Shown here: piece by piece, positions 2,873 to 31,545 of the stretch
Layout: each line of letters starts with the position of its first letter
Numbering within the stretch: position 1 is the first letter of the stretch
Assembly (NCBI GenBank): GCA_001766815.1
Contig: LYOS01000005.1
Coordinates: 68,687-100,686, forward strand
Direction of reading: 5' to 3'
Source of the DNA: Candidatus Syntropharchaeum caldarium
Lineage (GTDB): Archaea > Halobacteriota > Syntropharchaeia > Syntropharchaeales > Syntropharchaeaceae
Length of the DNA stretch: 32,000 nt
Translations under genes and position numbers: made by a program
The notes under the pieces: model-generated
What the model saw: the letters and a program-made list of their open reading frames with translations, nothing else
Told to the model about the DNA's origin: nothing
The model's database searches: none

Positions 2873-2875
2873 AGG

Positions 2876-4298: not shown

Positions 4299-4378
4299 CT
4301 CGTATTTTATATATACTCGATTACTTCTCAGCATGGTGACTGTATCGTTGCGGTCTGAGACCGGGGAAGGGTGAGATC

Positions 4379-4726
4379 ATGAGCCACTGGCTATGCATCC
4401 TTAACCGGGAGAACTTTGAGGTTGTCAGGGGCAAGATGATATGGGTAGGCTTTCCGAAAGCCCACACGGTATGAACTTTTACAAAGTTCATCCTCAAATG
4501 TCCAGCATTCCGCTACGCTCCAGCTGGACTTCCAGCCTTCGGCTGGGGTTCTCGCTCGAAGAGCGTAGTCCTACCGCAGGTAGGACATGGGTGTATGAGG
4601 CGTGCTTTACGCCTCATTACAAACAAGAAGAAATGGAGCGAGCATTTAGTCGGGAAGGCGATGGGGGAGATTTCTGAGCGGGATTATGAGGTGATGAGGG
4701 GGTGGGTGGAAGGGGAAAGCTTTTAA
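4379..4726 (+). pseudogene. Disrupted EVE/PUA-like (UPF0310-type) gene: N-terminal 23 codons and C-terminal ~35 codons survive in different frames
   Basis: 4379-4447 encodes MSHWLCILNRENFEVVRGKMIW, a UPF0310-like start, then stops at 4472-4474. A different frame at about 4618-4726 encodes [34 protein letters not shown], which resembles the UPF0310 C-terminus. The central ~90 codons expected from my recollection of the family are missing. Confidence 0.55.
4448..4617. other. Hairpin-dense ~170-nt insert (MITE-like element or structured RNA candidate) replacing the middle of the EVE-like gene
   Basis: Perfect stems read directly: 4471-4479/4483-4491 (9 bp); 4513-4520/4561-4568 (8 bp) enclosing 4532-4537/4541-4546 (6 bp); 4568-4575/4579-4586 (8 bp); 4595-4603/4609-4617 (9 bp). 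Confidence 0.45.
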
Positions 4727-4751
4727 AATCATTCAATTCCATTCATACCAT

Positions 4752-5027
4752 ATGGTAGGAATAAGAACTGTCGGCAAAAAAGGACAGGTTACAATACCCA
4801 AGGAAATTAGAGAGAAGTTTGGGTTGAAAGAAGGCTCAAAGGTCAGTTTTGAGGTTAAAGAGGATGAGATAGTGATTAAACCTGAGAAATCTGGGAAAGA
4901 TTTTGTTGAAGAATGGTGCTCCATTGTTAAAAAGAAGCTGGACAAACCGATCGATTTGAGAAGGCTGAAAGAAGAGTACTACGAGGAGCAGGTGGAAAAG
5001 TTTTACTATCATGTGAACTGTAAATGA
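4752..5027 (+). CDS. AbrB/SpoVT/MazE-family DNA-binding protein (antitoxin-like regulator)
   Basis: The N-terminal swapped-hairpin motif VGKKGQVTIPKEIREKFGLKEGSKVSFEV..DEIVIKP is typical of AbrB/VapB-type antitoxins. It is co-oriented with, and 12 nt upstream of, the ATPase gene. Confidence 0.75.
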   Translation: MVGIRTVGKKGQVTIPKEIREKFGLKEGSKVSFEVKEDEIVIKPEKSGKDFVEEWCSIVKKKLDKPIDLRRLKEEYYEEQVEKFYYHVNCK

Positions 5028-5039
5028 AATGAGGTTATA

Positions 5040-6044
5040 ATGAACAGCGCGGAGGCGTACAGGAAACTATTCGCAGCATTTGCAAGCGGAGCAAGAGATG
5101 AGTTTTTTAAAGTAGCTCAAGAAATAATTGAGGATGAGGAGCGAAAACATAATAATAAACTTGCTAAAGATTTGTGTCGTATTTTATACAACGGAAATAA
5201 AACTAAAAACTATTCAGAACGATATAAAAAAGCATTGCAAATTCCACGGGATGCAGAGAGGGGGCTGCCACTGGTGGAAATAAAAGAATGTAAAAAGGAC
5301 TGGTCTGAGATAGTAGTAGAAGAAAACATAGAAAATACTCTCAGAAGAATAATTTTAGAAAATCAAAAAAGGGAGGTTCTTGAAGTTAGTGGGCTGAAAC
5401 CTAAGATGAAATTACTATTCTTTGGTCCACCAGGATGTGGTAAAACTCTTGCTGCGGAGGTATTAAGTACGGTACTTAGCTGGCCGATGGCTTATGTTAA
5501 GTTTGACGGGTTAATCTCTTCTTATCTGGGCGAAACTGCATCAAACATGAGAAAAATATTTGATTTTATAGAGCGGGGGCAGTGGGTCGTCTTTTTTGAT
5601 GAGTTTGATGCCATTGGAAAGGAGAGAGATAGCCCGTTTGAACATGGAGAGATGAAGAGGGTTGTTAATAGTTTCCTTCAGATGCTGGATAATTTTAAGG
5701 GCGAATCCATTATAATTGCTGCAACAAATCATCAACACCTTTTAGATCCTGCTTTATGGAGAAGATTTGACGAACTTATTTATTTTGGCTTTCCAGATAA
5801 GAAGAGGAGGGTTGAAATTTTCAAAAAATATCTAAGAGGAATAAGAACGATAAAGGTGGATTTAGAGTATTTTGCAGAAAAAACAGATGGTATGAGTCCA
5901 GCAGACATAGAAACAATCTGTTTGAATGCAATAAAAGAGGTAATACTCTCGGATAAGAAGTCTCTAACAAAGGCCGTGCTGGATGAATATGTTGAGAAGC
6001 AAAGAGAACGAATTGAGATTAGAAATAAAGCCATGAGGGGGTGA
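5040..6044 (+). CDS. Classical AAA+ ATPase (IetA-like)
   Basis: Walker A GPPGCGKT, Walker B VVFFDEFD, sensor-1 IIAATN and an arginine-finger region PALWRRFD. Its stop overlaps the start of the downstream S8 protease gene (GTGA). Confidence 0.8.
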   Translation: MNSAEAYRKLFAAFASGARDEFFKVAQEIIEDEERKHNNKLAKDLCRILYNGNKTKNYSERYKKALQIPRDAERGLPLVEIKECKKDWSEIVVEENIENTLRRIILENQKREVLEVSGLKPKMKLLFFGPPGCGKTLAAEVLSTVLSWPMAYVKFDGLISSYLGETASNMRKIFDFIERGQWVVFFDEFDAIGKERDSPFEHGEMKRVVNSFLQMLDNFKGESIIIAATNHQHLLDPALWRRFDELIYFGFPDKKRRVEIFKKYLRGIRTIKVDLEYFAEKTDGMSPADIETICLNAIKEVILSDKKSLTKAVLDEYVEKQRERIEIRNKAMRG

Positions 6045-8464
6045 ATGGAATGGCTGAGAGATTACCTCACTTGCCCTTGCCTGTGGTAATGGAGGGTTTG
6101 CCAAGAAAGAAAAGGAAAGCATACCCAAAGCCAAGGAAAGTAAGGAGCGATGCTGAAAGAAAAACATTTGGTAAGAAAGCATTGGATGAAAGTGAAAAAA
6201 TTATTGAAGATTTTTCAAAATGGAAAAGCAAATATGGAGATAAAATTGATCCCAAGTTAATCTTTAAGATAGAGGCAAATTCACCAATCAACGAGAATGA
6301 TCTTGGTAGAATGGGGCTTAAAATTCTTGGCGTGGATTATAAAGACGCTGTTGTAGTATTTGCTGATGATGAGCATTTGACTGCGTTTAAAAGAATGATA
6401 GAAGAATACGCTAATGAAATACCGCCCGACCAAGAAAATGCAAAACACGCATTCATCCATGCCTTCGAAGATATTCGCAAAATAGCTCCTGGTGAAAAGA
6501 TAGGGGTTAGATTAAGGAAAGAACCACTAAAAGATGAAGATATCGCTATACTGGATATTGAATTGTGGCATTTGGGTAGAGAGTATCGAGAACAGATGCT
6601 CTCATGGAAAGATGGAATAGATAGAATATTAAAGGAGAATGGCGGAGAAGTTACGGATTTCTATCTAGGACGAGCATTGTTTATTATACGGGCAAAAGTT
6701 CCATCAACTTTATTATATGATATTCTTAACCTGCCCCAAGTAGCAAGGGTAGATAGACCTCCTAAGACCACTTTAGACTTGGCGAAAATTAAGGGAATTT
6801 CTCTAGATGAAATTGGTGAGATTCCATCTCCAGAGGATGATGCTCCTGGCATCCTAATTGTTGACTCTGGAATAACGAGCGGGCACCCACTTTTAAAGAG
6901 TGCAATAGGTGATGCTCAATCATATCTGGATGGGAAATCCCCGGTTGATGAGAATAGCCACGGTACTGCTGTCGCTGGTGTTGCCTTGTATGGTGATTTG
7001 CGAGAATATATTAAGGAGAAGAAATTCAATCCAGAACTTTGGATATACTCTGCTCGGGTGTGTGATGAGAATGGCGAGTACGATAAAGAAAAACTTCCCG
7101 AAACGCAGCTAGATGAGGCGATAAAGTATTTTGTTGAACATTATGAGAACATTAGAGTTGTAAACTTATCCATAGGTGATCCTGAAAAGATATATCACCC
7201 AGAAGATTATCAGTACCGATTGGCAGCGGTTATTGATGAGCTTGCGCTTGAGTACGGAGACAACAACATTCTATTTGTTGTTTCTGCTGGAAATTATGAG
7301 GACAGTAGGACGGGGGTGGAGTATCTCGATGAAGAAACTGCAAGTAGGTACCCGGCTTATTTGCTGGATGATCCGAATGCTAAGGTAATTGATCCTGCGA
7401 CTTCTGCGCTTGCTCTCACGGTTGGTTCTCTGAGTTTGGAACAGGGATCTGCTAATAGGTGGTTTGCCTCGCCTTTGGCTGGTTTTGAAGAGTTTCCATC
7501 CCCCTTCACACGGACGGGACCCGGTGTAAACGGAATGATTAAACCGGATTTAGTAGAGTTTGGTGGGGACCTAACATCTGAAAAGGGGTCTGGGATCGTA
7601 ACAGATCCTTCTATCGGAGTAATCACAACGGAAAAGAATTTCCTTACAGAGGGATTATTCAGAGTTGAGGACGGAACAAGCTTTTCAGCAGCTAAAGTAT
7701 CTCATCTGGCTGCAAAATTGTGGAGAGAGCTTCCTGATGCAACTTCTAACCTGATAAAAGCACTACTGGTTGCATCTGCAAAGATACCTGATATAAGACC
7801 CCCTCCCTTGGATAGTATCGATTTAAAAGGTTCAGCTAAAGAGGACCAATCTAAGCTGCTTAACATTTATGGTTATGGACATCCGAGTCTTGATAGAGCA
7901 TTTTCTATCCAGAACAGGGTGCTTTTGATCGATGAAAGAGAGATAAATTTGGACGATATTGTTATCTATGAGATTCCAGTTCCAGTGGAGTTTTATAGAG
8001 GCAGTGGCAGAAGAACTATTTCGATTACACTCGCTTTTGATCCTCCAACTCGAATGACGAGGAAGCAGTACCTTGGTGTTACGATGGAGTTTCATCTTTT
8101 TAGAGGGGTTGATGTTGAACAGATAAAACAGAGATACGCCAAAATGGAGACGTTTGATACCGAAGAAGAGGGTGTTCCACCATTATTACGAAGTAATGAG
8201 ATATCTTTGGTTCCAGGTGTAACGTTAGCGAAGAAGGGAACGGTTCAGAAGCGGATGTGGTTGATAGACCGTACACCAGACTATATTGACGAATCATTGA
8301 AGCTGGTGGTTATCTGTAGTGGCAAATGGATGATTGATGAAGAATACAAGCAAAGATATGCCGTTGTTGTGACGATGGAACAGCGAGATATGATTGAGTT
8401 GTATAACAAAATTAAGGAGCGGTTGAGAATACCCGAGAGAGTGAGGATACGACCGCTGGGCTGA
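6041..8464 (+). CDS. S8 (subtilisin-like) serine peptidase with ~270-aa N-terminal and ~190-aa C-terminal extensions (IetS-like)
   Basis: Catalytic triad contexts ILIVDSGI (Asp), SHGTAVAGVA (His) and DGTSFSAAKVSHLAA (Ser), plus VVSAGN. Translationally coupled to the upstream AAA+ gene. The start may be GTG 6041 or ATG 6050. Confidence 0.8.
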   Translation: MNGMAERLPHLPLPVVMEGLPRKKRKAYPKPRKVRSDAERKTFGKKALDESEKIIEDFSKWKSKYGDKIDPKLIFKIEANSPINENDLGRMGLKILGVDYKDAVVVFADDEHLTAFKRMIEEYANEIPPDQENAKHAFIHAFEDIRKIAPGEKIGVRLRKEPLKDEDIAILDIELWHLGREYREQMLSWKDGIDRILKENGGEVTDFYLGRALFIIRAKVPSTLLYDILNLPQVARVDRPPKTTLDLAKIKGISLDEIGEIPSPEDDAPGILIVDSGITSGHPLLKSAIGDAQSYLDGKSPVDENSHGTAVAGVALYGDLREYIKEKKFNPELWIYSARVCDENGEYDKEKLPETQLDEAIKYFVEHYENIRVVNLSIGDPEKIYHPEDYQYRLAAVIDELALEYGDNNILFVVSAGNYEDSRTGVEYLDEETASRYPAYLLDDPNAKVIDPATSALALTVGSLSLEQGSANRWFASPLAGFEEFPSPFTRTGPGVNGMIKPDLVEFGGDLTSEKGSGIVTDPSIGVITTEKNFLTEGLFRVEDGTSFSAAKVSHLAAKLWRELPDATSNLIKALLVASAKIPDIRPPPLDSIDLKGSAKEDQSKLLNIYGYGHPSLDRAFSIQNRVLLIDEREINLDDIVIYEIPVPVEFYRGSGRRTISITLAFDPPTRMTRKQYLGVTMEFHLFRGVDVEQIKQRYAKMETFDTEEEGVPPLLRSNEISLVPGVTLAKKGTVQKRMWLIDRTPDYIDESLKLVVICSGKWMIDEEYKQRYAVVVTMEQRDMIELYNKIKERLRIPERVRIRPLG

Positions 8465-8479
8465 TCTTTACTGTAAGGC

Positions 8480-8648
8480 GCATTTGGAGGGTATAACAGC
8501 CGATGAGGGAAGGGAGCTCAGGAAACTGAAGAATGAGAACATGAAGATGATTGAGGATGTTTACATGGCGCTTGTGGGTGATAGAGAGGTGCAGGCGTGG
8601 ATTGAGAAGATAAAGGCGCATGAGTGGGTGAGGATGGTGGAGGGGTGA
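8480..8648 (+). repeat. RM-tail repeat copy E (5'-truncated, diverged)
   Basis: Encodes ...LEGITADEGRELRKLKNENMKMIEDVYMALVGDREVQAWIEKIKAHEWVRMVEG*, colinear with the end of copy A. No start codon. It begins about 15 nt after the S8 protease stop. Confidence 0.75.
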
Positions 8649-8677
8649 TTATATTTAGATGAAAGGCAAAGATAAAA
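8649..8677 (+). promoter_or_regulatory. Conserved TATA-containing leader following tail copy E
   Basis: TTATATTTAGATGAAAGGCAAAGATAAAA is near-identical to 9633-9660, which follows tail copy F. Both sit in front of an antitoxin gene. TTATATTTA is TATA-box-like and lies roughly 25-30 nt before ATG 8680. Confidence 0.4.
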
Positions 8678-8679
8678 TT

Positions 8680-8886
8680 ATGATATCTGCTGTGAATTTG
8701 GAGAGAAAGCTACTTGCCCTGGAGAGGGAGCTTCATTCGTTACTTGATATGGTGAGGGAGGAGAGGTTAAAGGAGCTTGGAGGAGATGTGGTGGAGGCTT
8801 CTTCTGGTGCCTGGGGATATGATGTAGATAGTGCTGAGTTTGTTAGAGGGTTGAGAGGTTCTAAACGGCTGGACTGGATAGAATGA
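8680..8886 (+). CDS. Small VapB-like antitoxin (coiled-coil N-terminus, AWG..D..EFVRGLR C-terminus)
   Basis: MISAVNLERKLLALERELHSL...ASSGAWGYDVDSAEFVRGLRGSKRLDW resembles archaeal PIN-partner antitoxins. Its stop overlaps (ATGA) a PIN-like start. I prefer ATG 8680 over 8659 because 8659 lies inside the leader that is non-coding at copy F. Confidence 0.5.
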   Translation: MISAVNLERKLLALERELHSLLDMVREERLKELGGDVVEASSGAWGYDVDSAEFVRGLRGSKRLDWIE

Positions 8887-8945
8887 AGTTCTTTGTGGAC
8901 TGTCTCAAAAAGATGTGGAAAAGCTCAAAAAGCTTTTGGAGATAG
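8883..8945 (+). pseudogene. PIN-domain toxin remnant (20 codons)
   Basis: MKFFVD... is the usual PIN/VapC start and is coupled to the antitoxin stop by an ATGA overlap. The frame ends after 20 codons. Confidence 0.3.
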
Positions 8946-9011
8946 TCATCGTAGAAGAATATACGAATACATATAAAAACATTTATATATCACCTTTAAA
9001 ATACTCATCGT

Positions 9012-9269
9012 GTGAATACTTACACGATCAAGATAAAAGAAGCTGCTGAAAAGCGACTTAAAAGATATGACAAAGAGATTCAGAGGCGTTTTGCATCTAA
9101 AATCAGAAAGTTGAGTGAGAACCCTGAAGTGCATGGAAAACCCCTCAGAAAACCTCTCCATGGATACTGGGAACTGCGATTTGAACGAAGATTCAGAATC
9201 ATTTACACGATAAATCATGCTGAGAAAACAGTTACAATAGAGGCGATAAAACACAAGGATGAGTTTTAG
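9012..9269 (+). CDS. RelE/ParE-family toxin
   Basis: The layout is typical of the RelE/StbE family: ...IRKLSENPEVHGKPLRKPLHGYWELRFERRFRIIYTINHAEKTVTIEAIKHKDEF. It has a GTG start only and no cognate antitoxin upstream on the same strand. Confidence 0.7.
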   Translation: MNTYTIKIKEAAEKRLKRYDKEIQRRFASKIRKLSENPEVHGKPLRKPLHGYWELRFERRFRIIYTINHAEKTVTIEAIKHKDEF

Positions 9270-9463
9270 ATACCAAGCTCCCTTGCAACGGCTTCAAAAT
9301 CTCGTATTTTTGCTTCCCTTCTCTTTCCCTCACTGATCTGCTCCATGAGATCTTCATCGGATAACGTCTCGATCGTTCTCAACATCGATTCATACTCGTC
9401 CAGAGAGATCGTTATCCATTCGGTCTGATGAGTTTTATTATTCGTGTTGGAAGTTTCCATCAT
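9266..9463 (-). CDS. RelB/Phd-like antitoxin
   Basis: ITISLDEYESMLRTIETLSDEDLMEQISEGKRREAKIRDFEAVARELGI matches the archaeal RelB-type antitoxin pattern. Its stop codon overlaps the RelE stop on the other strand (TTAG). Confidence 0.6.
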   Translation of the reverse strand: MMETSNTNNKTHQTEWITISLDEYESMLRTIETLSDEDLMEQISEGKRREAKIRDFEAVARELGI

Positions 9464-9596
9464 ATCTAATAGTAGTGGGTTTGTATATTTAAGGATGATG
9501 TTGTTGTATAAAGTTTTTGGAGGAGAATAGCACCATGAATCCAGTATTATTCACCCACATCTTTACTGTTGGGCATACAGTGTGTGTCTAAAACGG

Positions 9597-9632
9597 ATTG
9601 AGAGGATAAAAGGGCGTGGGGGGTAGGGATGA
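9597..9632 (+). repeat. RM-tail repeat copy F (only the last ~12 codons, degenerate)
   Basis: ATTGAGAGGATAAAAGGGCGTGGGGGGTAGGGATGA parallels ATTGAGAAGATAAAGGCGCATGAGTGGGTGAGGATGGTGGAGGGGTGA of copy E. The same conserved leader follows both. Confidence 0.5.
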
Positions 9633-9660
9633 TTATATTTAGATAAAAAGCAAAGATAAA
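9633..9660 (+). promoter_or_regulatory. Conserved TATA-containing leader following tail copy F
   Basis: TTATATTTAGATAAAAAGCAAAGATAAA differs from 8649-8676 at two positions by eye. It precedes the SD GTGAGGTGA and the GTG start at 9674. Confidence 0.4.
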
Positions 9661-9673
9661 GTGAGGTGAATAA

Positions 9674-9898
9674 GTGACCCTGAAAGTCCTGGTTGATATC
9701 GTGAATGACATAACAAAATTCATTGAGAGGCTTGAGAGGAGGAAAGAGGAGCTTGAGGAGTTAAGAGATGAGCTTCTGGTCTACAGTGATGAAGAGTTTA
9801 TTGAGAGTATAGAAAAGGGATTAAAAGACTTTGAGGAGGGTAAGTTCAAGAGATGTGAGAATCTGGATGAGATAAAAGCTGTTTTTGAAGATCTATGA
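9674..9898 (+). CDS. RelB-like antitoxin
   Basis: 74 aa with a coiled-coil N-terminus and a C-terminal DEEFIESIEKGLKDFEEGKFKRCENLDEIKAVF, typical of archaeal RelB. It overlaps the downstream toxin start by 4 nt. Confidence 0.6.
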   Translation: MTLKVLVDIVNDITKFIERLERRKEELEELRDELLVYSDEEFIESIEKGLKDFEEGKFKRCENLDEIKAVFEDL

Positions 9899-10155
9899 TC
9901 TATAAGGCAGATTTCTCTGATGAGTTTCTTAAAATAGCAAAGAAACTTAAGAAAAAAGATTATACAACTTTTGTAAGGTTACAATCAAAGATTGAGGAAA
10001 TTCTGAGCAATCCAGAGCATTATAAACCCTTGAAAGGTGGGATGAAGGGACTGAGAAGGACACATCCTGGATCTTTCGTGATAATATTCAAAATTGAGAA
10101 GGATTATGTCAGGTTCGTCACATTCAAGCACCATGATGAAGCATATCGTGAATAG
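9895..10155 (+). CDS. RelE/ParE-family toxin
   Basis: 86 aa with ...ILSNPEHYKPLKGGMKGLRRTHPGSFVIIFKIEKDYVRFVTFKHHDEAY, matching the RelE family layout. Coupled to the upstream antitoxin. Confidence 0.7.
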   Translation: MIYKADFSDEFLKIAKKLKKKDYTTFVRLQSKIEEILSNPEHYKPLKGGMKGLRRTHPGSFVIIFKIEKDYVRFVTFKHHDEAYRE

Positions 10156-10184
10156 TAGCGTAGCATATCAAGGTTTGAATAACG

Positions 10185-10592
10185 ATGAATAGATCACCAT
10201 TCATGCAGAAACTGTATGAAATCCTTGCAGACCGCCCCCTCTTCCTCAACGCTACGGAGGAACGCAGAAACAAGCTCAAAGATGTAATAGAATTTTTCGA
10301 CCGCCAGATTGCAGATAACCTCGTTTACGAACTCTACTTCAAAGAAAAATTCGCAGAGGTGGTCTCAAAACATTTAAAAGCCGTAAATTATGATAGGTGG
10401 AGTGAGCTTTACTGGAAGCGGGAGCTTGAAGGAGATCTAAAACCAGAAGAAGAGAAAGAATTAAAAGATTTAGAGAATGAGAACTTAAAAACAATAATTG
10501 AAGTTGTCAAGGCAATCAAATCAGATAGGGAGATCATGGAGTTGATCGAGAAGATAAAAGGGCATGAGTGGGTGAGGTTGGTGGAGGGATGA
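10185..10592 (+). pseudogene. Type IIG-like restriction-modification enzyme, C-terminal remnant (tail copy A, longest and intact to its stop)
   Basis: ...FFDRQIADNLVYELYFKEKFAE...IEKIKGHEWVRLVEG* resembles the conserved C-terminal end of Eco57I/TaqI-like type IIG enzymes (canonical ...LVYELYGLTEEEIKIVEG). Only 135 codons are present and there are no methylase or nuclease domains. Confidence 0.65.
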
Positions 10593-11470
10593 AAGAGAAT
10601 TACCTTGATTTTGGTGGCCTAAAGGATGATAAGAAGCTTGACTGGTTTATCTTTTATTTCATAATACCTCTGTTCTTGATCATCGTTTACATCATGGTCT
10701 ATCTTCATCCAGAGCTTGAGAGAGTTCTCATCCTCCAGACGTCCAATCCCACCTGGATCAGCATATACCTTTCCAACTTTGTCCATACAGATTTATGGCA
10801 TCACTTAGGAGGGAATTTACTTAATTATTTCATTCTAATTTACTTGATACTCTTCTTCAGGACCGATAAAAAGAAATTCTACATCAATATGGCTCTATTT
10901 TTTACTGTACTACCAGTACTCTGTTCTTTATCAACAATTTATCTTGCATCAGCGCCCCCACCATCTTTTGGGGTTTTATGGCAATTTTTGGGTTTTTCTG
11001 GCATTGTTTCTGGTTTGGCTGGTTATCTCCTATACTCTGTTTACCGGTATATCAGAGAAAAATGGGAGATTTTAAATATCCATTTCATTTTTTCAATTCT
11101 CGCATTTAATCTATTGATCATCACTTTTACATATAAATGGTTCTGGATGTCTGTTTTTATCTTTTTATTCTGCTTGGTAGCTTTATATCTGGCTAAAAAT
11201 GGTCTAACGATGACAATCTCTAAAATTATCGACAAGTGGAATAAGATAAAACAAAAGAATGCAAAAGTTAAGATTTACAAGCTTATGATCTTTCTTTTTA
11301 CGGTTTATTTTCTTTTTGGATCAACTGTGGGGTTATTTCCTGTAAATGCAAAGGGAATAAACATTCTTGCCCACTATGCTGGTTATTGCTTCGGAGCGCT
11401 TGTTCCATTGATATTTGTGGATGGTGGCATGTTAGTGCTGAAAAAGCTGTTGGATTCGGATAAAAGGTAG
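10589..11470 (+). CDS. Rhomboid-family intramembrane serine protease (candidate)
   Basis: Polytopic membrane protein with WHHLGGNLLNY (H-x3-N), GFSGIVSGLAGY (GxSG catalytic Ser) and AHYAGYCFGAL (catalytic His) in successive hydrophobic segments. ATG 10589 lies within the last codons of tail copy A, whose GGTGGAGGG serves as the SD. Confidence 0.6.
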   Translation: MKENYLDFGGLKDDKKLDWFIFYFIIPLFLIIVYIMVYLHPELERVLILQTSNPTWISIYLSNFVHTDLWHHLGGNLLNYFILIYLILFFRTDKKKFYINMALFFTVLPVLCSLSTIYLASAPPPSFGVLWQFLGFSGIVSGLAGYLLYSVYRYIREKWEILNIHFIFSILAFNLLIITFTYKWFWMSVFIFLFCLVALYLAKNGLTMTISKIIDKWNKIKQKNAKVKIYKLMIFLFTVYFLFGSTVGLFPVNAKGINILAHYAGYCFGALVPLIFVDGGMLVLKKLLDSDKR

Positions 11471-11550
11471 AACCATAAATTTTAGGATTCTGTAATAAGT
11501 TTACCAAAAAGATAAAACCCACCCATGAATAATGGTAGTAGAGGGTAAAA

Positions 11551-11877
11551 ATGAGAACAACCACTGAGATTAAGGAGCTTGTACTGAAGATAAAGAAATT
11601 CCTTCTGGACCTTTATGGGACAGGGATAAAGCAGGTCATACTCTATGGCTCCTATGCGAGGGGGGATGCGGACGAGGATTCAGATATCGATCTCTTAGTT
11701 GTAGTCGGAGAGGAGATTAGCCCTTCGGAAGTAGAGGAGAGCCTCAACGATCTTTTGTTTGAGATCCTCATTGAGAGGGGGGAGCTGGTATCAGTTATGG
11801 CGATTCCAGAAGGCACTTTCAGGTCTTATAATTCTCCTCTTTTCCTGAATGTGAGGAGGGAGGGGGTATCGGTATGA
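11551..11877 (+). CDS. Minimal nucleotidyltransferase (MNT) antitoxin
   Basis: GSYARGDADEDSDIDLLVV is the pol-beta NTase GS...DxD motif. 4-nt overlap with the downstream HEPN gene. Confidence 0.8.
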   Translation: MRTTTEIKELVLKIKKFLLDLYGTGIKQVILYGSYARGDADEDSDIDLLVVVGEEISPSEVEESLNDLLFEILIERGELVSVMAIPEGTFRSYNSPLFLNVRREGVSV

Positions 11878-12257
11878 AAGAGATAGAAGATCTGATAAAG
11901 AAAGCACAGAGGTTTTTGAGAACTGCTGAAATTACCCTGGATGATTGTGATTACGACTCATGCGTCTCAAGATGTTATTATACGATGTTTTTCATGGCTG
12001 AAGCGATGCTTTTGAGCAAAGGTATCAGTGCATCCTCTCACAAAGGTGTAATAAGTTTATTTGGAGAGCATTTTATCAAGACAAACATATTAAAGGAGGA
12101 GCTGGGTAAGGCATTGAGAAGAGCATACGATTTAAGACAGAAAGGGGATTACGCCACGGGTTTTACCGTCAGTGATAGGGAAGCTAAGAAGAGCCTGGAG
12201 ACAGCTAAAAGATTTGTAGCAGAAGCAGAAAAGTATCTTAAGAGCCAAACGGAGTAA
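11874..12257 (+). CDS. HEPN-domain toxin
   Basis: 127-aa helical protein coupled to an MNT. HEPN-type layout (...SCVSRCYYTMFFMAEAMLL...SHKGVISLF...AYDLRQKGDY). Confidence 0.75.
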   Translation: MKEIEDLIKKAQRFLRTAEITLDDCDYDSCVSRCYYTMFFMAEAMLLSKGISASSHKGVISLFGEHFIKTNILKEELGKALRRAYDLRQKGDYATGFTVSDREAKKSLETAKRFVAEAEKYLKSQTE

Positions 12258-12512
12258 ATGATCTACGAACTCTACTTCAAAGAAAAATTCGCAGAGGCGG
12301 TCTCAAATCACCTTAAGCCGGTAGATTATGATCGCTGGAGTGAGCTTTACTGGAAGCGGGAGCTTGAATGGAATTTAAAACCAGAAGAAGAGAAAGAATT
12401 AGAAGATTTAGAGAATGAGAACTTAAAAACAATAATTGAAGTTGTCAAGGCAATCAAAACAGATAGGGAGATCATGGAGTTGATTGAGAGGATTAAAGGG
12501 CATGTGGGTTAA
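12258..12512 (+). repeat. RM-tail repeat copy B
   Basis: Starts at ATG ATC TAC GAA CTC TAC (IYELY) immediately after the HEPN stop. Roughly nine in ten positions match copy A by eye. A 2-bp loss near the end (GGGCATGTGGGTTAA versus GGGCATGAGTGGGTGAGG) truncates it to ...IKGHVG*. Confidence 0.85.
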
Positions 12513-12531
12513 GGTAAGAGGAGAGTGAAAT

Positions 12532-12876
12532 ATGGTATTGGTAAAAGTGGAGAGGGTAGATGAGAATTTGATTGAGGAGATTGTTAAGAGGATACTCAGC
12601 GTGGTTAATCCTGTGAAGATTATTCTTTTCGGATCTTATGTCTACGGTAAGCCTCGAAAAGACAGTGATTTGGACATACTTGTGATTGTTGATGAAGATA
12701 AGAAACCTAGATACAAAAGAGTGGTTCCTGTGAATCTTGCTCTATCAGATATAATCTATCCGATTGATGTGTTTATATACACCAAGAAAGAGGTGGAGGA
12801 GTGGACAGGTGTACCACAGTCTTTTATCACTACCATTATAAAGAAGGGAAAAGTGATCTATGAAAAAGAAGCTTGA
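12532..12876 (+). CDS. Minimal nucleotidyltransferase (MNT) antitoxin
   Basis: GSYVYGKPRKDSDLDILVIV NTase motif. Overlaps the downstream HEPN gene by 17 nt. Confidence 0.8.
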   Translation: MVLVKVERVDENLIEEIVKRILSVVNPVKIILFGSYVYGKPRKDSDLDILVIVDEDKKPRYKRVVPVNLALSDIIYPIDVFIYTKKEVEEWTGVPQSFITTIIKKGKVIYEKEA

Positions 12877-13270
12877 CTGGATAAAAGAATGGATTAATAA
12901 AGCTGACAAGGACCTCAAGGTAGCTGAAAGGTTCTTAAATGATGAAAATATGGCAGATGTGGTGTGTTTCCATGCACAGCAGGCATCTGAAAAATGCCTG
13001 AAGGCGTATCTAAACTGGCTTGAAATAGAATACCCCAAAACTCACCTTCTTGAAAAACTTATAGAGCTCGCATCCTTAACAGACAAAGATATTTCGAAAT
13101 TGAAAGAAGATGCTGCGAAACTTTCCCCTTTTGCAGTGGAAACAAGATATCCAGAATTTGAGCTTCCATTATCAGAAGATGCTCTGGAGGCCTTAGAAAT
13201 ATCATATAAAATAAGAAACTATGTCCTTTCTAAATTGCCAAGGACAAAAAAGGAAAAAAATGATGTATGA
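12860..13270 (+). CDS. HEPN-domain toxin
   Basis: FHAQQASEKCLKAYL and ETRYP motifs typical of HEPN partners of MNT. Its stop codon overlaps the first codons of tail copy C. Confidence 0.8.
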   Translation: MKKKLDWIKEWINKADKDLKVAERFLNDENMADVVCFHAQQASEKCLKAYLNWLEIEYPKTHLLEKLIELASLTDKDISKLKEDAAKLSPFAVETRYPEFELPLSEDALEALEISYKIRNYVLSKLPRTKKEKNDV

Positions 13271-13536
13271 ACTCTACTTCAAAGAAAAATTCGCAGAGGC
13301 GGTCTCAAATCACCTTAAGCCGGTAGATTACGATCGCTGGAGTAAGCTTTACTGGAAGGGGTAGCTTGAAGGAGATCTAAAACCAGAAGAAGAGAAAGAT
13401 TTAGAAGATTTAGAGAATGAGAACTTAAAAACAATAATTGAAGTTGTCAAGGCAATCAAAGCAGATAGGGAGATCATGGGGTTGATCGAGAAGATAAAAG
13501 GGCATGAGTGGGTGAGAGTGATTGAAAGAGGTTAAA
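13266..13536 (+). repeat. RM-tail repeat copy C (in-frame stop)
   Basis: Starts TAT GAA CTC TAC (YELY). TGGAAGGGGTAGCTTGAA replaces TGGAAGCGGGAGCTTGAA, giving an internal TAG. It ends ...IKGHEWVRVIERG*. Confidence 0.85.
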
Positions 13537-15084
13537 AGCATTTATAAAATTATTGAAAATCTGTTATATCTGTCTTCTTTAGCACAATTCAATACCGAGA
13601 GGAAACAACTGATTCTTAAGTTCTATGATTTCTCTATGAGGAATAAGATTTTATTTGAAAAATGTATAGGTATGAGAGACCTAGAGGATTTCTGTTTGTC
13701 GTATAGGGAAAAAGACCTAATAGAAGAGTGGTTGTTGACATTGCCTCTAGATGTTCATGTAAGTTGGAATCTTGAATACACCACAGAAAGATATGCTCAC
13801 CTTGACAACCTATTTTTAAAAGAATATGGTTTTCACATTGGTTCATTAACCGTAATGGAGATGGTCCTAATGGGTATTATCTATTCAAAAGTAGATTTAG
13901 AAGGGATTCTCAACGAAGTTTATAAGTTCAAAAATAAGGAAGAATATGGAAATTTATGTTTTTTAGCTGAACCAAATAGAATATTTCCTAAAAAATGGTC
14001 ATCCTGCATAATACTTTCAGAAAACGAAATTCTTGAGAGCTACATACAGCATCAAACTAATTTTGATAGATTTTTCAAAGTTATCTCTTCGATAAATTGG
14101 AGAGTTGATTCAGAAGAGGAACTTATACAACTCAGGCTAAAAGAAGCAATAAGTATTTTAAAATGGCTCAGCACGGATTTACAATCTTTGGAGTTGAAAT
14201 ACAATCAGAAATTCTATTTCTTTCTCAAACCACTTTTAAAAGTGCAGGATGAAGACTCCAAGGTTTATTACATCGTACCTTTTCCGTTTATTCTTGGATC
14301 AACCACGAATATCAGAATAGAAAATTCTATTCAATTATCTGAGAAACTTAAAAAAGCTGATGAAAAAAAGAAGGGAAAAATAGTAGAGATTTTGGTAAAT
14401 AAAATCTTTCCACAATTTTTTAACAAAAATATCATTAAAAATTTCAGATACAAGATAGATGAAAAAACTTATGAAAGCGATATAATTCTACTCTTAGATA
14501 AGTCATTGTGGGTAGTAGAAGTTAAATCTCACCCAGTATTTAGGAAGATTCCTGGTAATGTGGATAAAGTCGTTCCTGCTTTTGTCAGCAAAGTCAAGGA
14601 AGGATTGAATCAAGGAAAAAGAACATTAGACTTCTTGTCAAAAAATAAAGACTTACTTTTTCACCTCACAGACAAAAATTTCGAAAATCTCGTTAAAGGA
14701 GTAATAGTTGTGTTAGATGGGTTTATCCCCACACTGCTAACTCTAAACAGAGAATGTGATAGCATTGCTGGAACTGACAAAATTTATCAGAAAATCCCAA
14801 ATTCAGTAAGAGTTTATGTAGTAACTCTTCTGGATTTATACATTTTATCTATGCAGTCAGAGAAAGATAGTTTTGAAGATTTTCTATTGTGGAGAACTGA
14901 TTATTTAAGCAATTTTCCTATAATTTCTTATGATGAAGAAGAATATTGGTCATTTTATAACGACCACTATACAAAGCATGAAGAAATCAAAAATAAGTTT
15001 CCAAAATTGGTAGAAAATGGTATAAAAATAATATATCTCAGTGCGAGGTTTAACAAAAAAGATTACTTAGAGAAAATAGTGTAA
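13522..15084 (+). CDS. Large uncharacterised protein with a C-terminal-half PD-(D/E)xK / NERD-like nuclease motif
   Basis: ...GKIVEILVNKIF...YESDIILLLDKSLWVVEVKSHP gives an E...D...ExK arrangement like NERD or restriction-endonuclease-fold proteins. It is very A/T-rich and K/N/I/F/Y-rich. The start is uncertain (TTG 13522 or ATG 13636). Confidence 0.5.
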   Translation: MKEVKSIYKIIENLLYLSSLAQFNTERKQLILKFYDFSMRNKILFEKCIGMRDLEDFCLSYREKDLIEEWLLTLPLDVHVSWNLEYTTERYAHLDNLFLKEYGFHIGSLTVMEMVLMGIIYSKVDLEGILNEVYKFKNKEEYGNLCFLAEPNRIFPKKWSSCIILSENEILESYIQHQTNFDRFFKVISSINWRVDSEEELIQLRLKEAISILKWLSTDLQSLELKYNQKFYFFLKPLLKVQDEDSKVYYIVPFPFILGSTTNIRIENSIQLSEKLKKADEKKKGKIVEILVNKIFPQFFNKNIIKNFRYKIDEKTYESDIILLLDKSLWVVEVKSHPVFRKIPGNVDKVVPAFVSKVKEGLNQGKRTLDFLSKNKDLLFHLTDKNFENLVKGVIVVLDGFIPTLLTLNRECDSIAGTDKIYQKIPNSVRVYVVTLLDLYILSMQSEKDSFEDFLLWRTDYLSNFPIISYDEEEYWSFYNDHYTKHEEIKNKFPKLVENGIKIIYLSARFNKKDYLEKIV

Positions 15085-15125
15085 GCCATCAGAAAAGATA
15101 ATAAATATCTGGAAGCAACAGGTAC

Positions 15126-15314
15126 AACCGCTGGAGTAAGCTTTACTGGAAGCGGGAGCTTGAAGGGGATTTGACTCCTGATAGGGAAAGAGAGCTTGAG
15201 AAACTGGAAAGGGAGAATATGAAGACGATTGAGGAGGTTTATGAAGCAATCAAAGCAGATGGGGAAATCATGGAGTTGATCGAAAGGATTAAAGGGCATG
15301 AGTGGGTTAGATAA
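15126..15314 (+). repeat. RM-tail repeat copy D (5'-truncated, diverged)
   Basis: Encodes ...RWSKLYWKRELEGDLTPDRERELEKLERENMKTIEEVYEAIKADGEIMELIERIKGHEWVR*, colinear with copies A-C but lacking the YELYFKEKFAE start. Confidence 0.8.
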
Positions 15315-15425: not shown

Positions 15426-15713
15426 ATGTATGATCAGATTAGGGAAATGAAAAGGGAGATTATTGATGTTTTGAGAAAGCATAATGTCAAACGGGCATCG
15501 CTTTTTGGCTCGTTTGCAAGAGGGGAGGCGGGTCCAGGGAGTGATATTGACATTCTTGTGGAGTTTGAAGGGAGAAAAAGCCTGCTGGATCTTGCAGGCT
15601 TGAAAATAGAACTTGAAGAGTTATTGAAAAGGAAGGTTGATGTCCTGACATACAATTCTCTGCATCCTCTTCTAAAGGATAGAATCCTCAGTGAACAGGA
15701 AGTAATACTATAA
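15426..15713 (+). CDS. Minimal nucleotidyltransferase (MntA-type antitoxin)
   Basis: GSFARGEAGPGSDIDILVEF NTase motif. 95 aa, typical of the MntA partner of HepT/DUF86. Confidence 0.8.
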   Translation: MYDQIREMKREIIDVLRKHNVKRASLFGSFARGEAGPGSDIDILVEFEGRKSLLDLAGLKIELEELLKRKVDVLTYNSLHPLLKDRILSEQEVIL

Positions 15714-15910
15714 AAAAAGACCCTGAAATACTTCTTGAACACATTTTAGAGAGTATTAGGCTTATTGAAAGCTATGTGGAAGATAAAACAATCGAAGACT
15801 TCCTTAATTCAATTCAACTACAAGATTCGGTCACTCGCAGAATAGAAATAATTGGCGAGGCTGTTAAGAATTTACCTGAAAGTGTTAAAATGCTACTACT
15901 TGACCAATAG
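15710..15910 (+). pseudogene. HepT (DUF86 HEPN) toxin remnant: start codon lost, 3' half missing
   Basis: Encodes (I)KKDPEILLEHILESIRLIESYVEDKTIEDFLNSIQLQDSVTRRIEIIGEAVKNLPESVK, then diverges and stops. ATA sits where the coupled ATG is expected. The Rx4-6H catalytic region is absent. Confidence 0.65.
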
Positions 15911-16870: not shown

Positions 16871-17308
16871 TTAATAGTAATCTGATACGCCATTTGCTGC
16901 TATCACCTTCACACGTGCTGGATTTGAGCTAATTCCTGATATATTGATCTCTAAACATTCATCGGGTGCCCATACAGAGGTTGCTGTACCATCGATCGTG
17001 AGTGCTGTGATGGAATCTGTCTTCAGGTTGCCATCAAGGATTACATCAATTTTGCTCGCGTTTATTACGGTGCTTCCTGTATTATTGACATCAATCAGCA
17101 GAAAATTTCCTTCAGCATTATAACTTGTGTCTGTTATCTCAAAATCCGTTTGAATCTTGTTCAACATCCTTTCCTGCTGAACTTCTTTTGCATCATTGAC
17201 CAGGTTCGATCTATAGCTGTAAGATGATACAAGCATACTTGCAAGAACAATGAACGCCACGAGAAATATCGCAAATGTCATTGAGACGCTAAATCCCATA
17301 CTCTCCAC
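16871..17308 (-). CDS. flaF: Archaellum protein FlaF/ArlF
   Basis: MGFSVSMTFAIFLVAFIVLASML N-terminus and a beta-rich C-terminus (NNTGSTVINASKIDVILDG), typical of FlaF. The likely start is the MGFS methionine at 17299. Confidence 0.7.
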   Translation of the reverse strand: MESMGFSVSMTFAIFLVAFIVLASMLVSSYSYRSNLVNDAKEVQQERMLNKIQTDFEITDTSYNAEGNFLLIDVNNTGSTVINASKIDVILDGNLKTDSITALTIDGTATSVWAPDECLEINISGISSNPARVKVIAANGVSDYY

Positions 17309-18830
17309 CCATCAGATTTTTGAGCTTCATCACTTCCTGCTCTACAAGGTTGACTGTGATCATATCGATCTCGTTTCCATGAATCATTTCAATAAAGAGG
17401 AGTGACTTCTTGTGATCATCTGGTGAGAGTCTCCACTCGGGTTTATCTTTGTAGTAGTCCATCCCTGCTGCATACTCCATCGCCTGATTCCTTAACTCCT
17501 TGTCGATCCATCCGATATGGACGTAGTAGTTCAGCGCCTCAAGAAGGTTGTTTCGTCCAACCCGCTCCAGCAGAAACTCAACCCATCTTATGAGAACAAG
17601 TGACTGCACAGGGTTAATACCATGGCTCGATTCTACAGCCCCCCCTCCTTGATGACAACCGCCTCGGGAATTCACCGAAAGCTCACGATTTTTAATCCCA
17701 TCGATCTGCTCAACAGATCCGCATCCAGCGTTCGTTTCCTCTTCGATGGCTTTCTGGGCCTTGAGCTCTTTAAGTTCGTTCACAATCTCTTTGAATGATT
17801 CAAACTCGGCTTTAATCTCCTCTTCTGCCATACCGATCTCTGTCAAACGTTGAAAAACATTGTTAAACTTGAGATCAATCTCTTCGTTGTGCTCCCCTTC
17901 ACTGATGCGCGCTTCCAGCATTTCTATCTTCTGCGAGAGTTTTGTAACCATTTCACCGAGTGCCGCAAGATCATCCCCTGTGTCACCCTGCATTGTGTTG
18001 AGCCGTGCCTCAATATTCTTGACCACCGCGTCAATTCCCTCAATCTGCGCAATTCTTGCCTCAATCTGGTCAAACCGCTCGGTTATAGCAGAACTCAATG
18101 CACTCTCGCCCACAAAAGGATTCACCTGATCGGATATGATTTCATATAAACTTAAAAATTGTATTGTCGTCTCATCAAGCTTATTTATTTTATCCATCAT
18201 CTCATCGTTTTCTTTCTTAATTATACTCAGTGAAACGTCGATTTTACTCTGTTTAAGTTCCAGTTCTTCAAGCCTGTTGAGAAGTGCAGTGTTGTCATCT
18301 TTTTCACCCCCTTTCTTTGGTGTGGGTGCCTCAAAGTCGTCTTCTTCGTCAAAGTCTTCCTCTTCTTCAAAGTCATCTTCCTCGTCGAAGTCATCTTCCT
18401 CCTCGAAGTCCTCCTCTTCTTCAAAGTCATCTTCCTCGTCGAAGTCGTCTTCCTCGTCAAAGTCATCGTCACTCATGACATCACCTCCATCATCCTCATC
18501 CCACTCCCCCTTTTCTTCAATCTCTTCCTCTACCTCGTCAAAATCAAAGAGATCATCCTCATCGTCTATTTTTTTCTCCACCTTTTTCTGGCCTGAACCT
18601 GGTTTAACTTTTTTTGATATTTCCTTCCTGCCAACAGTATCACCTGCGAGCATCTTGAACTTGTTTTTGAGTGAGTTTTTCCGCATTTTTTTAACATCCA
18701 ACAGATTTTTTTTCGGTCCGAGATCGAGCTTTGCAAATGGATTTGGTACTTTTCTGTTGAAGTTCAAACTTCCTTTGAATGACTTTAACACTTTACCCAT
18801 ATCCATATAAAAGTAATGAATTGGGAACAA
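17289..18830 (-). CDS. flaD: Archaellum protein FlaD/E (ArlD/E) with FlaC-like coiled coil and an expanded acidic repeat
   Basis: The C-terminal domain ...LIRWVEFLLERVGRNNLLEALNYYVHIGWIDKEL...LSPDDHKKSLLFIEMIHG matches the FlaD/E conserved domain. The central SLYEIISDQVNPFV is a FlaC_arch-type motif. The true start is probably the MDMGKV/MGKV methionines. Confidence 0.75.
   Translation of the reverse strand: MFPIHYFYMDMGKVLKSFKGSLNFNRKVPNPFAKLDLGPKKNLLDVKKMRKNSLKNKFKMLAGDTVGRKEISKKVKPGSGQKKVEKKIDDEDDLFDFDEVEEEIEEKGEWDEDDGGDVMSDDDFDEEDDFDEEDDFEEEEDFEEEDDFDEEDDFEEEEDFDEEDDFEAPTPKKGGEKDDNTALLNRLEELELKQSKIDVSLSIIKKENDEMMDKINKLDETTIQFLSLYEIISDQVNPFVGESALSSAITERFDQIEARIAQIEGIDAVVKNIEARLNTMQGDTGDDLAALGEMVTKLSQKIEMLEARISEGEHNEEIDLKFNNVFQRLTEIGMAEEEIKAEFESFKEIVNELKELKAQKAIEEETNAGCGSVEQIDGIKNRELSVNSRGGCHQGGGAVESSHGINPVQSLVLIRWVEFLLERVGRNNLLEALNYYVHIGWIDKELRNQAMEYAAGMDYYKDKPEWRLSPDDHKKSLLFIEMIHGNEIDMITVNLVEQEVMKLKNLMGGEYGI
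18331..18470 (-). repeat. In-frame 18-nt tandem repeat encoding (D/E)(D/E)DF(D/E)E units in flaD/E
   Basis: About eight consecutive units of GAAGTCATCTTCCTCGTC-like sequence on the plus strand. The translation is DDFDEEDDFDEEDDFEEEEDFEEEDDFDEEDDFEEEEDFDEEDDFE. Confidence 0.8.
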
Positions 18831-31492: not shown

Positions 31493-31545
31493 ATTTTTAG
31501 TATATCCATAGAAATACTTAAATACTTTTTGGTTAAAATCTGAAT

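Follow-up and report, generated by a model that had tools for sequence, protein, structure and literature searches.

The subject of this analysis is a stretch of 32,000 nucleotides from contig LYOS01000005.1 (the window, numbered from its first letter). The source organism is Candidatus Syntrophoarchaeum caldarius, and the open reading frame (ORF) at 10185-10592 corresponds to SCAL_001599 at 100% identity. Through the window runs an 11-kb island of low GC content, from ~4300 to ~15910 (0.31-0.43, against 0.47-0.50 in the flanks), which consists of small defence and toxin-antitoxin cassettes parted from one another by leftover 3' ends (the last 12-135 codons) of a restriction-modification (RM) gene, here called tails. 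We give a probability of roughly 0.6 to the reading that the island is an integrase-free, integron-like cassette array in which the RM-gene tail is the portable homology for loop-out and loop-in recombination, and that this particular array has lost its RM anchor. Homologous recombination is the most likely driver of the array, and the occurrence of the same layout in other hydrothermal archaea points to a gathering and exchange of defence genes that can do without an integrase.

Six co-oriented copies of the tail lie on the plus strand of the window in the order E, F, A, B, C, D. They were recovered by direct-repeat detection, by alignment and with a hidden Markov model (HMM) that was built from 42 homologous tails and sets the refined coordinates in Table 1; in this they agree with a first-pass annotation of the sequence, which had listed six such copies. 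The six positions given there and the coordinates of A hold, while E begins at 8448, 32 nt before the start it had been assigned, and overlaps the last five IetS codons. Repeat families by themselves place A at 10309-10577, B at 12247-12515, C at 13249-13517 and D at 15123-15311 (74-94% identity to the reference copy), with weaker copies for E (8580-8648) and F (9596-9628). A stretch of 54 bp is exactly identical in A (10467-10520), B (12405-12458) and C (13407-13460), as had been reported, and overall these three copies are 89-91% identical in pairs (A-B 0.889, A-C 0.899, B-C 0.909). They are thus equidistant, and the gradient of divergence and decay away from A that had been proposed falls away. 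Copy D is indeed more diverged (0.71-0.73 to A, B and C) and E has 0.59-0.66 identity to the other copies, but the shortened 5' ends of D and E are not a sign of decay: their YDRW start is a recurrent, inherited type of junction. Both B and C start at TAY GAA CTC TAC (YELY), abutting or overlapping the HEPN stop codon, and these junctions coincide in the alignment, just as the intact end of A, the lesion near the end of B and the internal stop of C are all as first described. The 5' halves of B and C are identical despite the different HEPN genes in front of them, and a 39-nt deletion is common to A, B and C and absent from their nearest relatives elsewhere (L027, L028 and L058 of the set of loci introduced below). 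A starts where the variable recognition domain of the parent protein gives way to its conserved C-terminal region.

On its domain matches, that parent is an Eco57I/TaqI_C-type (type IIG-like) methyltransferase gene of ~1100-1220 aa. Intact ORFs of 1067-1222 aa that end in the tail occur in Methanothermococcus, on a Methanocaldococcus plasmid, in Archaeoglobaceae, Thermoplasmata and Aenigmatarchaeota and on many metagenome contigs, and they carry Eco57I, MmeI_Mtase, N6_Mtase and TaqI_C matches (L058 and L003; L028 is without a TaqI_C match), which bears out the earlier assignment of the copies to the 3' end of a type IIG-like gene. A gamma-class N6-adenine methyltransferase and a TaqI_C-type recognition domain thus stand on one polypeptide in L058 and L003, and the PADLOC profile REase_MTase_IIG matches the parent protein at 1.5e-90. 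No nuclease domain was called in its N-terminal ~300 aa, and a separate HKD(PLD)-Snf2 helicase of 1017-1265 aa, matching PADLOC candidate C3a139, lies directly upstream of the RM gene in 32 of 63 loci; together these imply that the RM system may be a two-gene system and not a classical type IIG enzyme. The family has 438 matches at E <= 1e-20 and reaches thermophilic bacteria. At the start of the repeat, the motif ..D..VYELYF is the counterpart of the usual methyltransferase C-terminal "..ID..VY.LYGLT..", and the ~95 residues behind it form an extension without a solved relative.

Some loci show further arrangements of the parent gene. L045 carries, at 6183-7796, a second copy of the last ~318 RM codons (recognition domain plus tail) directly behind the RM gene at 3456-6749, and this extra copy looks like a spare specificity module for domain swapping. 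In L061 (9560-10078), L081 and L088 the RM gene has the usual ...GKLYGVNKEDMSYIL...NGY* ending and the tail comes next as an ORF of its own (MVTELYF...), overlapping the RM stop at its start; at one time the tail may have been an independent module. In a Methanophagales locus (L107, 1152-10402) the HKD-Snf2 helicase is separated from a frameshifted RM gene by a radical-SAM/GMT-wHTH fusion gene, so that cargo can also sit inside the two-gene system.

The architecture of the window recurs widely. The comparison covers 105 loci that all encode the tail, namely the window and 104 fetched loci, 24 of them from species-representative genomes and 80 from metagenomes. Two to five tail units are present in 21 of the 105, with the extra copies always on the strand of the first, and ~80 loci have a single tail. 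Gaps between the tails of an array measure 195-3840 nt (median 1384), and the ORFs in these gaps belong to 22 families and are mostly co-oriented (51 of 59). The role of the tails as delimiters of cassettes, first proposed from the different cargo in each interval of the window, extends to all 21 arrays. A long RM ORF opens ten of these, and several others are truncated by the contig end. In a Methanophagales array (L014), for example, the order is RM, DUF553 membrane protein, tail, MNT-HEPN, tail, MNT, and in L061, which has four to five tails, it is helicase, RM, tail, DUF553, tail, rhomboid-like gene, tail, Fic-like gene, tail, OLD. The array in the closed Methanoperedenaceae GB37 genome (L002) reads DUF553, tail, HD-domain protein, tail relic, and is without an RM gene, as is the window. 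In L014, L032, L039, L058, L059 and L067, among others, the RM gene is kept intact by the upstream tail copy and a partial copy of its 3' end flanks the insert, which is not so in the window, where the RM body is absent.

The cargo of these arrays comprises SLFN/AlbA_2 proteins, OLD-family ATPase-nucleases, MNT-HEPN pairs, RelE/ParE toxins, EVE-domain proteins, radical-SAM plus GMT-wHTH genes and M78-HTH proteins, as well as KAP NTPases, HD-domain proteins, RecD-like helicases, DUF5677, Fic-like and PIN proteins and a three-gene set without an assigned function. Pfam and PADLOC scans found no recombinase among the ~20 recurrent cargo families, and no integrase or transposase is conserved upstream of the 63 RM genes, where the HKD-Snf2 helicase alone recurs. 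Pfam-type protein scans of the island and its flanks likewise found no integrase or transposase in the window, and no trace of an RM gene body or helicase was found there; on the missing enzymes and on the missing RM body, the first reading of the island was right. None of the IMG/VR viral contigs was found to encode the tail, and a viral vector for it was rejected on that ground. About half of the orphan tails (those that stand apart from an RM gene) have frameshifts, stops or internal deletions, in keeping with a role as scars. Such scars account for many of the 80 small "hypothetical proteins" (75-235 aa) that match A, and others represent the final part of an RM gene broken by a frameshift.

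Several side observations belong to these loci. In L002 an IS481-like rve transposase gene (6986-7957) adjoins the RM-less array and may be connected with the loss of the RM gene there. Contigs from sister Syntropharchaeales metagenome-assembled genomes (L105 and L106) begin with an orphan tail (168-524 and 278-634, respectively), followed by MCM and thermosome genes, which places this array at another chromosomal locus than that of the window. Three tandem GCGTCAGATTT units end the AlbA_2 cassettes just before a short tail (L032 6755-6790, L059 4030-4067, L061 12580-12617, L090 5655-5692), and the Fic-like cassette of L061 has two copies of GGTTGACGCAAA at 13650-13680, the core of which, GACGCAAA, is the reverse complement of TTTGCGTC in the AlbA_2 repeat. 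The AlbA_2 and Fic-like proteins both end in a similar wHTH domain, and the GCGTCAGATTT and GGTTGACGCAAA units may be operators.

The cassettes themselves are shared between loci. Four segments of the window, listed at the end of Table 1, are found elsewhere at 86% to 96.5% identity, and in L027, L028 and L058 the window cassettes stand directly behind intact RM genes with this tail. What surrounds them varies. After the NERD cassette, L058 continues with a DUF553 cassette where the window has MNT; upstream of F, an OLD cassette and other genes are present in L025, and Iet, E and a RelE module in the window; and the cassette with the type B HEPN gene (HEPN-B) is followed by NERD in the window, by AlbA_2 in L090 and by DUF553 in L085. 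The finding of one cassette in different neighbourhoods amounts to variation in cassette content at related contigs, with the differently occupied sites that serial exchange had been expected to leave. The relic F is also present in L025 (3678-3751) and L026 (664-708). In both of these loci A has the same place as in the window, as an orphan behind the RelE cassette, and it is thus not the remnant of the resident gene that it had been taken for.

Variation within the tails follows the cargo. The orphan tail behind HEPN-B (window, L090 and L085) has HEPN-B-specific variants from its YELY start to ...AGTAAGCTTTACTGGAAG; past ...AGTAAGCTTTACTGGAAG, it switches to the variant that precedes the downstream cargo where that cargo stands behind RM genes (L058, L036). 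Between L032 and L036 the RM bodies are 92% identical and the tails 75%, the divergence begins right after CTTTACTGGAAGAAGCAA, and the cargo behind is OLD in one and AlbA_2 in the other. The converse, in which tails are shared and bodies are not, is seen in L027 and L058 (body 63%, tail 92%) and in L087 and L096 (69% and 97%). Judged from these alignments, a tail receives its 3' part together with the cargo that follows, and an orphan keeps its 5' part together with the cargo that precedes it. Such a linkage is what one crossover would produce if a circle with one tail and its cargo recombined with a resident tail, and it upholds the earlier idea that an incoming element brings a replacement tail, as the 3' part of the tail matches the one fronting the same cargo elsewhere.

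Arrays would normally grow behind the two-gene system of HKD/PLD-Snf2 helicase and Eco57I/TaqI_C-type methyltransferase, with the conserved last ~100 codons of the RM gene as the portable homology. A cassette would then run from the 3' part of one tail, stop codon included, through one to three compact cargo genes into the 5' part of the tail that follows. Direct tail copies may recombine so that the cassette is looped out as a circle, and a single crossover with any tail copy, of the same genome or, after transfer between cells, of another, would reinsert it by host homologous recombination. Since the upstream copy would be complete, the RM gene would stay intact and a 5'-truncated orphan tail would be left downstream of the cargo; repeated rounds would yield the RM-tail-cargo-tail-cargo arrays. 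In the window, the helicase and the RM body would have been lost and the tails and cargo left, some of the tails decaying and some being homogenised locally by gene conversion.

The joints between tails and cargo also point to a way of expression. In most cargo families the cargo ATG overlaps the tail stop (ATGA), cargo genes start within a few nucleotides of the tail stop, and the last codons of the tail (V-E-G) give a GGAGG-like sequence just upstream of the cargo ATG. Several orphan ORFs in turn have a start ATG overlapping the stop of the preceding cargo gene, which suggests a chain of translationally coupled ORFs. With the ATGA overlap and the GGAGG-like sequence, promoterless cargo would probably be expressed by translational coupling, and such coupling could be the reason why a piece of tail stays in front of each cassette.

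Where the exchanges lie within the tail was read from hand-checked alignments, an automatic change-point scan having been swamped by two conserved blocks and not used. The tails downstream of AlbA_2 switch at ~HMM position 136-141 in L059 and at ~173 in L032 compared with L061. The NERD tails of the window and L058 show alternating patches of agreement and disagreement with a final split at ~HMM position 162, past which the remainder of the window tail D resembles the L088/L028 lineages. An attC-like fold was sought in tails A-E on both strands by single-strand DNA folding against dinucleotide shuffles, and none was found (z -1.7 to +0.4). Neither tail A nor the L058 tail proper (YELY to stop) contains an inverted repeat with arms of 9 nt or more and a spacer no longer than 40 nt; in the scanned L058 stretch there are two weak palindromes only (6217-6248), upstream of the YELY point. 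Synonymous sites over the RM family are conserved at 0.47-0.59 in the tail versus 0.41-0.55 in the gene body, and a DNA-level constraint on the tail across the family was rejected, synonymous-codon identity being only marginally raised. Scattered exchange points, patchwork tails, the 39-nt deletion common to A, B and C, the matching 5' halves of B and C and the absence of an inverted-repeat core or attC-like fold fit homologous recombination and gene conversion better than a site-specific recombinase, and the single att-like crossover of the first-pass annotation is not borne out.

Several observations weigh against this account. Three or four of the mapped exchanges fall in one 13-nt block, CTTTACTGGAAG, at ~HMM position 132, which could be a specific core and not merely the best-conserved stretch. 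The orphan starts, moreover, are discrete whatever cargo precedes them: YELY behind five to six cargo types, YDRW to within 3 nt behind four to five, and a third cluster near IEKIK, where the very short orphans start. The long class begins with ...AAATGAWS joined to TAYGAACTCTACTTC and stands behind two HEPN types, DUF553, an HD protein and the natural stop of an RM gene of a different family; the short class begins at TACGACCGCTGG (YDRW), preceded by (AAC), and besides D and E it is found behind AlbA_2, OLD and Fic cargo. The D junction was inherited with the NERD cassette, being common to the window and L058 at 96.5% identity. Recombination between tails propagates a junction of this kind, but leaves its repeated origin at the same nucleotide in unrelated cargo unaccounted for. 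No circular or empty-site form was observed. All the contigs, furthermore, come from short-read assemblies, which tend to break at the tail repeat, as those of L105 and L106, which begin with a tail, show, or could be mis-joined through the 54-bp identity. Independent assemblies reproduce each of the adjacencies F-RelE-A-rhomboid, HEPN-B-tail and NERD-tail, and the array of L002 comes from a closed genome, so that the phenomenon is real, although the exact order of cassettes in the window rests on a short-read assembly; an exact-protein look-up of the flanking CdhD for other assemblies of the locus gave nothing on record. Finally, there is no intact RM gene of this family from S. caldarius among the best 120 of 438 matches, which makes present activity in its genome doubtful.

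The junctions shared to the nucleotide by unrelated cargo are the main reason why a site-specific activity acting in trans is kept as a live rival, though we regard it as unlikely. A host Xer-like recombinase, an integrase encoded elsewhere, the HKD/PLD-Snf2 protein or the RM enzyme would insert and excise cassettes at a core in the tail, much as with integron cassettes or Xer-dependent dif modules, and the mosaicism would be due to secondary gene conversion. Both main junctions (YELY and YDRW) begin with TACGA, several exchanges map to CTTTACTGGAAG, immediately downstream of the short-class start, the cassettes are compact, co-oriented and promoterless-looking in the manner of integrons, and PLD-family nucleases, of the kind encoded by the gene upstream of 32 of the 63 RM genes, act via a covalent intermediate able to support strand transfer. 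All this has to be set against a window, cargo families and RM upstream regions in which the scans found no integrase or transposase, a tail with neither inverted-repeat core nor attC-like fold, further exchanges at ~HMM positions 140, 162 and 173, and synonymous sites that are only slightly more conserved than those of the gene body. A bolder proposal, and to our mind a doubtful one, is that hydrothermal-sediment archaea (Syntrophoarchaeum, ANME-1/Methanophagales, GoM-Arc1/Methanoperedenaceae and others) possess a platform devoted to gene capture. For promoterless defence cassettes the RM 3' end would there be attachment site, delimiter and translation-start donor at once, and the cassette ends would be formed at TACGA (YELY, YDRW) by an enzyme so far not known as a recombinase. 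This would be an independent analogue of the integron without a tyrosine recombinase, and candidates for the end-making enzyme are the HKD/PLD-Snf2 protein or fixed-distance cleavage by the RM enzyme itself followed by circularisation of the fragment.

The tail might instead be a small gene of its own, a helical module of ~65-110 aa that is fused to the RM protein or free and is retained because the protein or the act of translating it is needed (for instance as a coupling linker or an RM/helicase adaptor), with the repeats as paralogous genes. All long-class orphans open with an ATG two codons before ELYF; some orphan ORFs begin with an ATG overlapping the stop of the preceding cargo (AlbA_2 in L090, OLD in L041, HEPN-A in L067); the tail of L061, L081 and L088 forms an ORF of its own after an RM gene in which the usual ...LYGV... 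ending is retained; and the tail end supplies the GGAGG-like sequence and the ATGA for the next gene. Yet about half of the orphans are disrupted, including B (frameshift), C (stop) and F (12 codons) of the window and many relics elsewhere, lengths range from 12 to 135 codons, and the 5' and 3' halves have different histories, so we consider this quite improbable. More improbable still, and disfavoured, is an origin without any mobility of cassettes, in which tandem complete RM systems, each with its own partner genes, lost helicase and RM bodies by deletion and left their 3' ends. RM genes of the family are often frameshift-fragmented (L107, L108), and neither the window nor L002 has an RM body, which speaks for it; but it needs many independent deletions that end exactly at a cargo stop and at YELY or YDRW, the same cassettes occur in different orders and with different neighbours at 89-96% identity, and arrays also stand behind a single intact RM gene. 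Homologous recombination between tails remains the preferred account of the array.

Table 1. Tail copies, cassette genes and shared segments of the window.
Feature	Position	Strand	Evidence and remarks
Tail E	8448-8648	+	HMM positions 123-189; short-class orphan, starts TACGACCGCTGG (YDRW), runs to stop; repeat families and alignment
Tail F	9596-9632	+	Last ~12 codons only; very short orphan; repeat family
Tail A	10185-10592	+	HMM positions 47-189; longest orphan, 135 codons, intact to stop
Tail B	12258-12515	+	HMM positions 87-181; long-class orphan, ATGATC joined to start TACGAACTC (YELY); 2-bp deletion near end
Tail C	13266-13535	+	Long-class orphan; in-frame TAG 13362-13364; 5' part HEPN-B type, 3' part NERD type
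Tail D	15123-15314	+	HMM positions 123-185; short-class orphan, starts TACAACCGCTGG; patchwork resembling three tail lineages
Eroded EVE-domain gene	4379-4696	+	N-terminal piece 4379-4465, C-terminal piece 4607-4696; tblastn with L097/L015 EVE protein
AbrB/MazE-type gene, first of Iet cassette	4752-5027	+	Pfam MazE_antitoxin 1.7e-18
IetA (AAA+ ATPase)	5040-6044	+	PADLOC IetA 3.6e-97; Pfam AAA
IetS (S8 subtilase)	6041-8464	+	PADLOC IetS 2.9e-132; Pfam Peptidase_S8; last five codons and stop within tail E
RelE/ParE module	8659-9463	mixed	75-aa ORF 8659-8886 (+); RelE/ParE 9012-9269 (+), Pfam ParE_toxin 1.8e-10; 65-aa ORF 9266-9463 (-)
Antitoxin-like gene and RelE/ParE	9674-10155	+	Antitoxin-like 9674-9898, RelE/ParE 9895-10155; Pfam ParE_toxin 4.9e-08; 91-93% to L025/L026
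Rhomboid-like membrane protein	10589-11470	+	ORF list; weak Pfam Rhomboid match; ATG overlaps tail A stop (ATGA)
MNT and HEPN, type A	11551-12257	+	MNT 11551-11877, HEPN 11874-12257; Pfam NTP_transf_2, HEPN; homologous pair in L067
MNT and HEPN, type B (HEPN-B)	12532-13270	+	MNT 12532-12876, HEPN 12860-13270; Pfam
NERD-like 520-aa protein	13522-15084	+	Pfam NERD 4.8e-4, under curated cut-off; the PD-(D/E)xK protein of the first-pass annotation
MNT and truncated HepT	15426-15910	+	MNT 15426-15713, HepT 15776-15910; Pfam NTP_transf_2 4.8e-20; right island edge
Shared: F, antitoxin, RelE, A, rhomboid-like gene	9625-11302		L025, L026; 91-93%
Shared: tail A, rhomboid-like gene	10235-10842		L027; 86%; behind 1166-aa RM gene
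Shared: tail B, MNT, HEPN-B, start of tail C	12291-13285		L028; 96.3%; tail there is end of intact 1159-aa RM gene
Shared: tail C, NERD-like gene, first 119 nt of tail D	13281-15241		L058; 96.5%; behind intact 1204-aa RM gene

The island lies between acetyl-CoA decarbonylase/synthase genes on the left (CdhD family, 1562-4282) and minus-strand archaellum genes on the right, and the remaining genes of the window are housekeeping ones (PolD, eIF5A, an arginase-family protein, PcrB and two tRNAs at 22446 and 23078). No tRNA was found in or beside the island, nor any known RNA family within it, and bacterial-type promoter and terminator scans of the island were uninformative, as the host is an archaeon. 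The left island edge is formed by the EVE relic, a domain that recurs as cargo behind RM genes in L015 and L097; a possible seventh tail at 4682-4714, raised by repeat detection, was rejected as the C-terminal relic of this gene. The AAA+/S8 pair at 5040-8464 is a complete Iet system in an archaeal host (IetA then IetS by PADLOC, with the AbrB/MazE-type gene in front). A residue of tail homology at the IetS C-terminus ("IELYNKIK") was rejected, as the PADLOC IetS profile spans to residue 803 of 807. The leader behind E (8636-8676) and that behind F (9620-9660) are 88% identical. The rhomboid-like gene is found elsewhere both behind an intact RM gene (L027) and behind tails (L025, L061, L077, L088 and L094), and at the right edge the HepT-like match of the truncated gene spans profile positions 13-47 of 120.

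Three features of the flanks may be recorded here. Eight tandem 18-nt units at 18311-18506 encode an acidic, D/E-rich repeat in a FlaC/FlaD/E-like archaellum gene (17289-18830, minus strand). A 93-nt direct repeat of 78% identity (1415-1507 and 1673-1765) links a 71-aa ORF at 1307-1522 with the start of the CdhD-family gene at 1562-2872, and may be a partial duplication of the 5' end of that gene. A second low-GC stretch (0.36-0.37) at 30000-32000 has short ORFs only, without Pfam matches.

The array invites comparison with several known systems. Sedentary chromosomal integrons are alike in their compact, mostly co-oriented and apparently promoterless cassettes of one to three genes, in their recurring separator, in their toxin-antitoxin and anti-phage cargo and in an order that varies by host. 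Unlike an integron, the array here has no adjoining IntI (none in the window and none conserved upstream of the 63 RM genes), its separator is a protein-coding 3' end of 36-408 nt with varying exchange points and not an attC hairpin, and its anchor is a defence gene and not an attI site. Integrative elements that insert in the 3' end of a gene and bring a replacement end are known from phage 21 and e14 in icd and from tandem islands at tRNA and tmRNA genes. As in the arrays, the insert there has a duplicate of the target 3' end on either side, the gene stays whole thanks to the upstream copy, and tandem partial copies build up as insertions follow one another. The units here, however, have a size of 1-4 kb and no integrase gene, their duplicated segment is long and of variable length, and the mapped exchanges fall at several points of the tail, three or four of them in CTTTACTGGAAG. 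The pdif modules of Acinetobacter plasmids depend on Xer and are bounded by 28-bp inverted-repeat XerC/D sites. They too are small resistance or toxin-antitoxin modules without a recombinase of their own, bounded by a repeated site; unlike them, the tail was found to contain no dif-like inverted-repeat core.

In the literature, which gave general work on long target duplication and on integrons, no published description of defence cassette arrays delimited by RM tails was found. The nearest published concept found is the "insertion with long target duplication" of RM units described by Furuta et al. 2010 (PMC2853133), where the mechanism is unknown and no archaeal case was retained in the survey. 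The likenesses are the direct repeats of more than 30 bp (36-408 nt here), far longer than the target duplications of transposons, the single copy of the repeat where no insert is present (~80 loci here have one tail), the lack of any mobility gene found and the link to RM genes. In those cases, however, it is the RM genes that are inserted, and an arbitrary chromosomal sequence forms the repeat, whereas here the repeat is the RM gene's own 3' end, the cargo consists of Iet, OLD, AlbA_2, MNT-HEPN, RelE and similar genes, and one insertion follows another. A further parallel is the swapping of recognition domains in type IIG and type I RM genes via flanking conserved regions (PMC2853133; Furuta and Kobayashi 2012, PMC3467074), since there too a conserved segment next to the recognition domain is the recombination handle; bodies, recognition domains and tails are discordant here, and L045 holds a spare copy. 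What differs is that here it is mainly unrelated downstream genes that are exchanged, and that partial tails pile up as an array.

How defence islands assemble, and how modules without mobility genes of their own move, are open questions, especially in archaea. The locus in S. caldarius and its ~20 relatives offer a concrete, testable architecture for both, in which the tail of a gene acts as reusable homology and possibly as an expression signal. The tail repeat also has a practical cost: short-read assemblies of these uncultured lineages break or become scrambled at it, and dozens of annotated "hypothetical proteins" (75-235 aa) are fragments of it. With such tails, unrelated defence genes would be able to accumulate behind an RM system and to pass between distantly related archaea living in one habitat. 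Should homologous recombination alone suffice, integron-like cassette dynamics would be possible without an integrase; if a dedicated enzyme is involved, it would represent a new recombination system.

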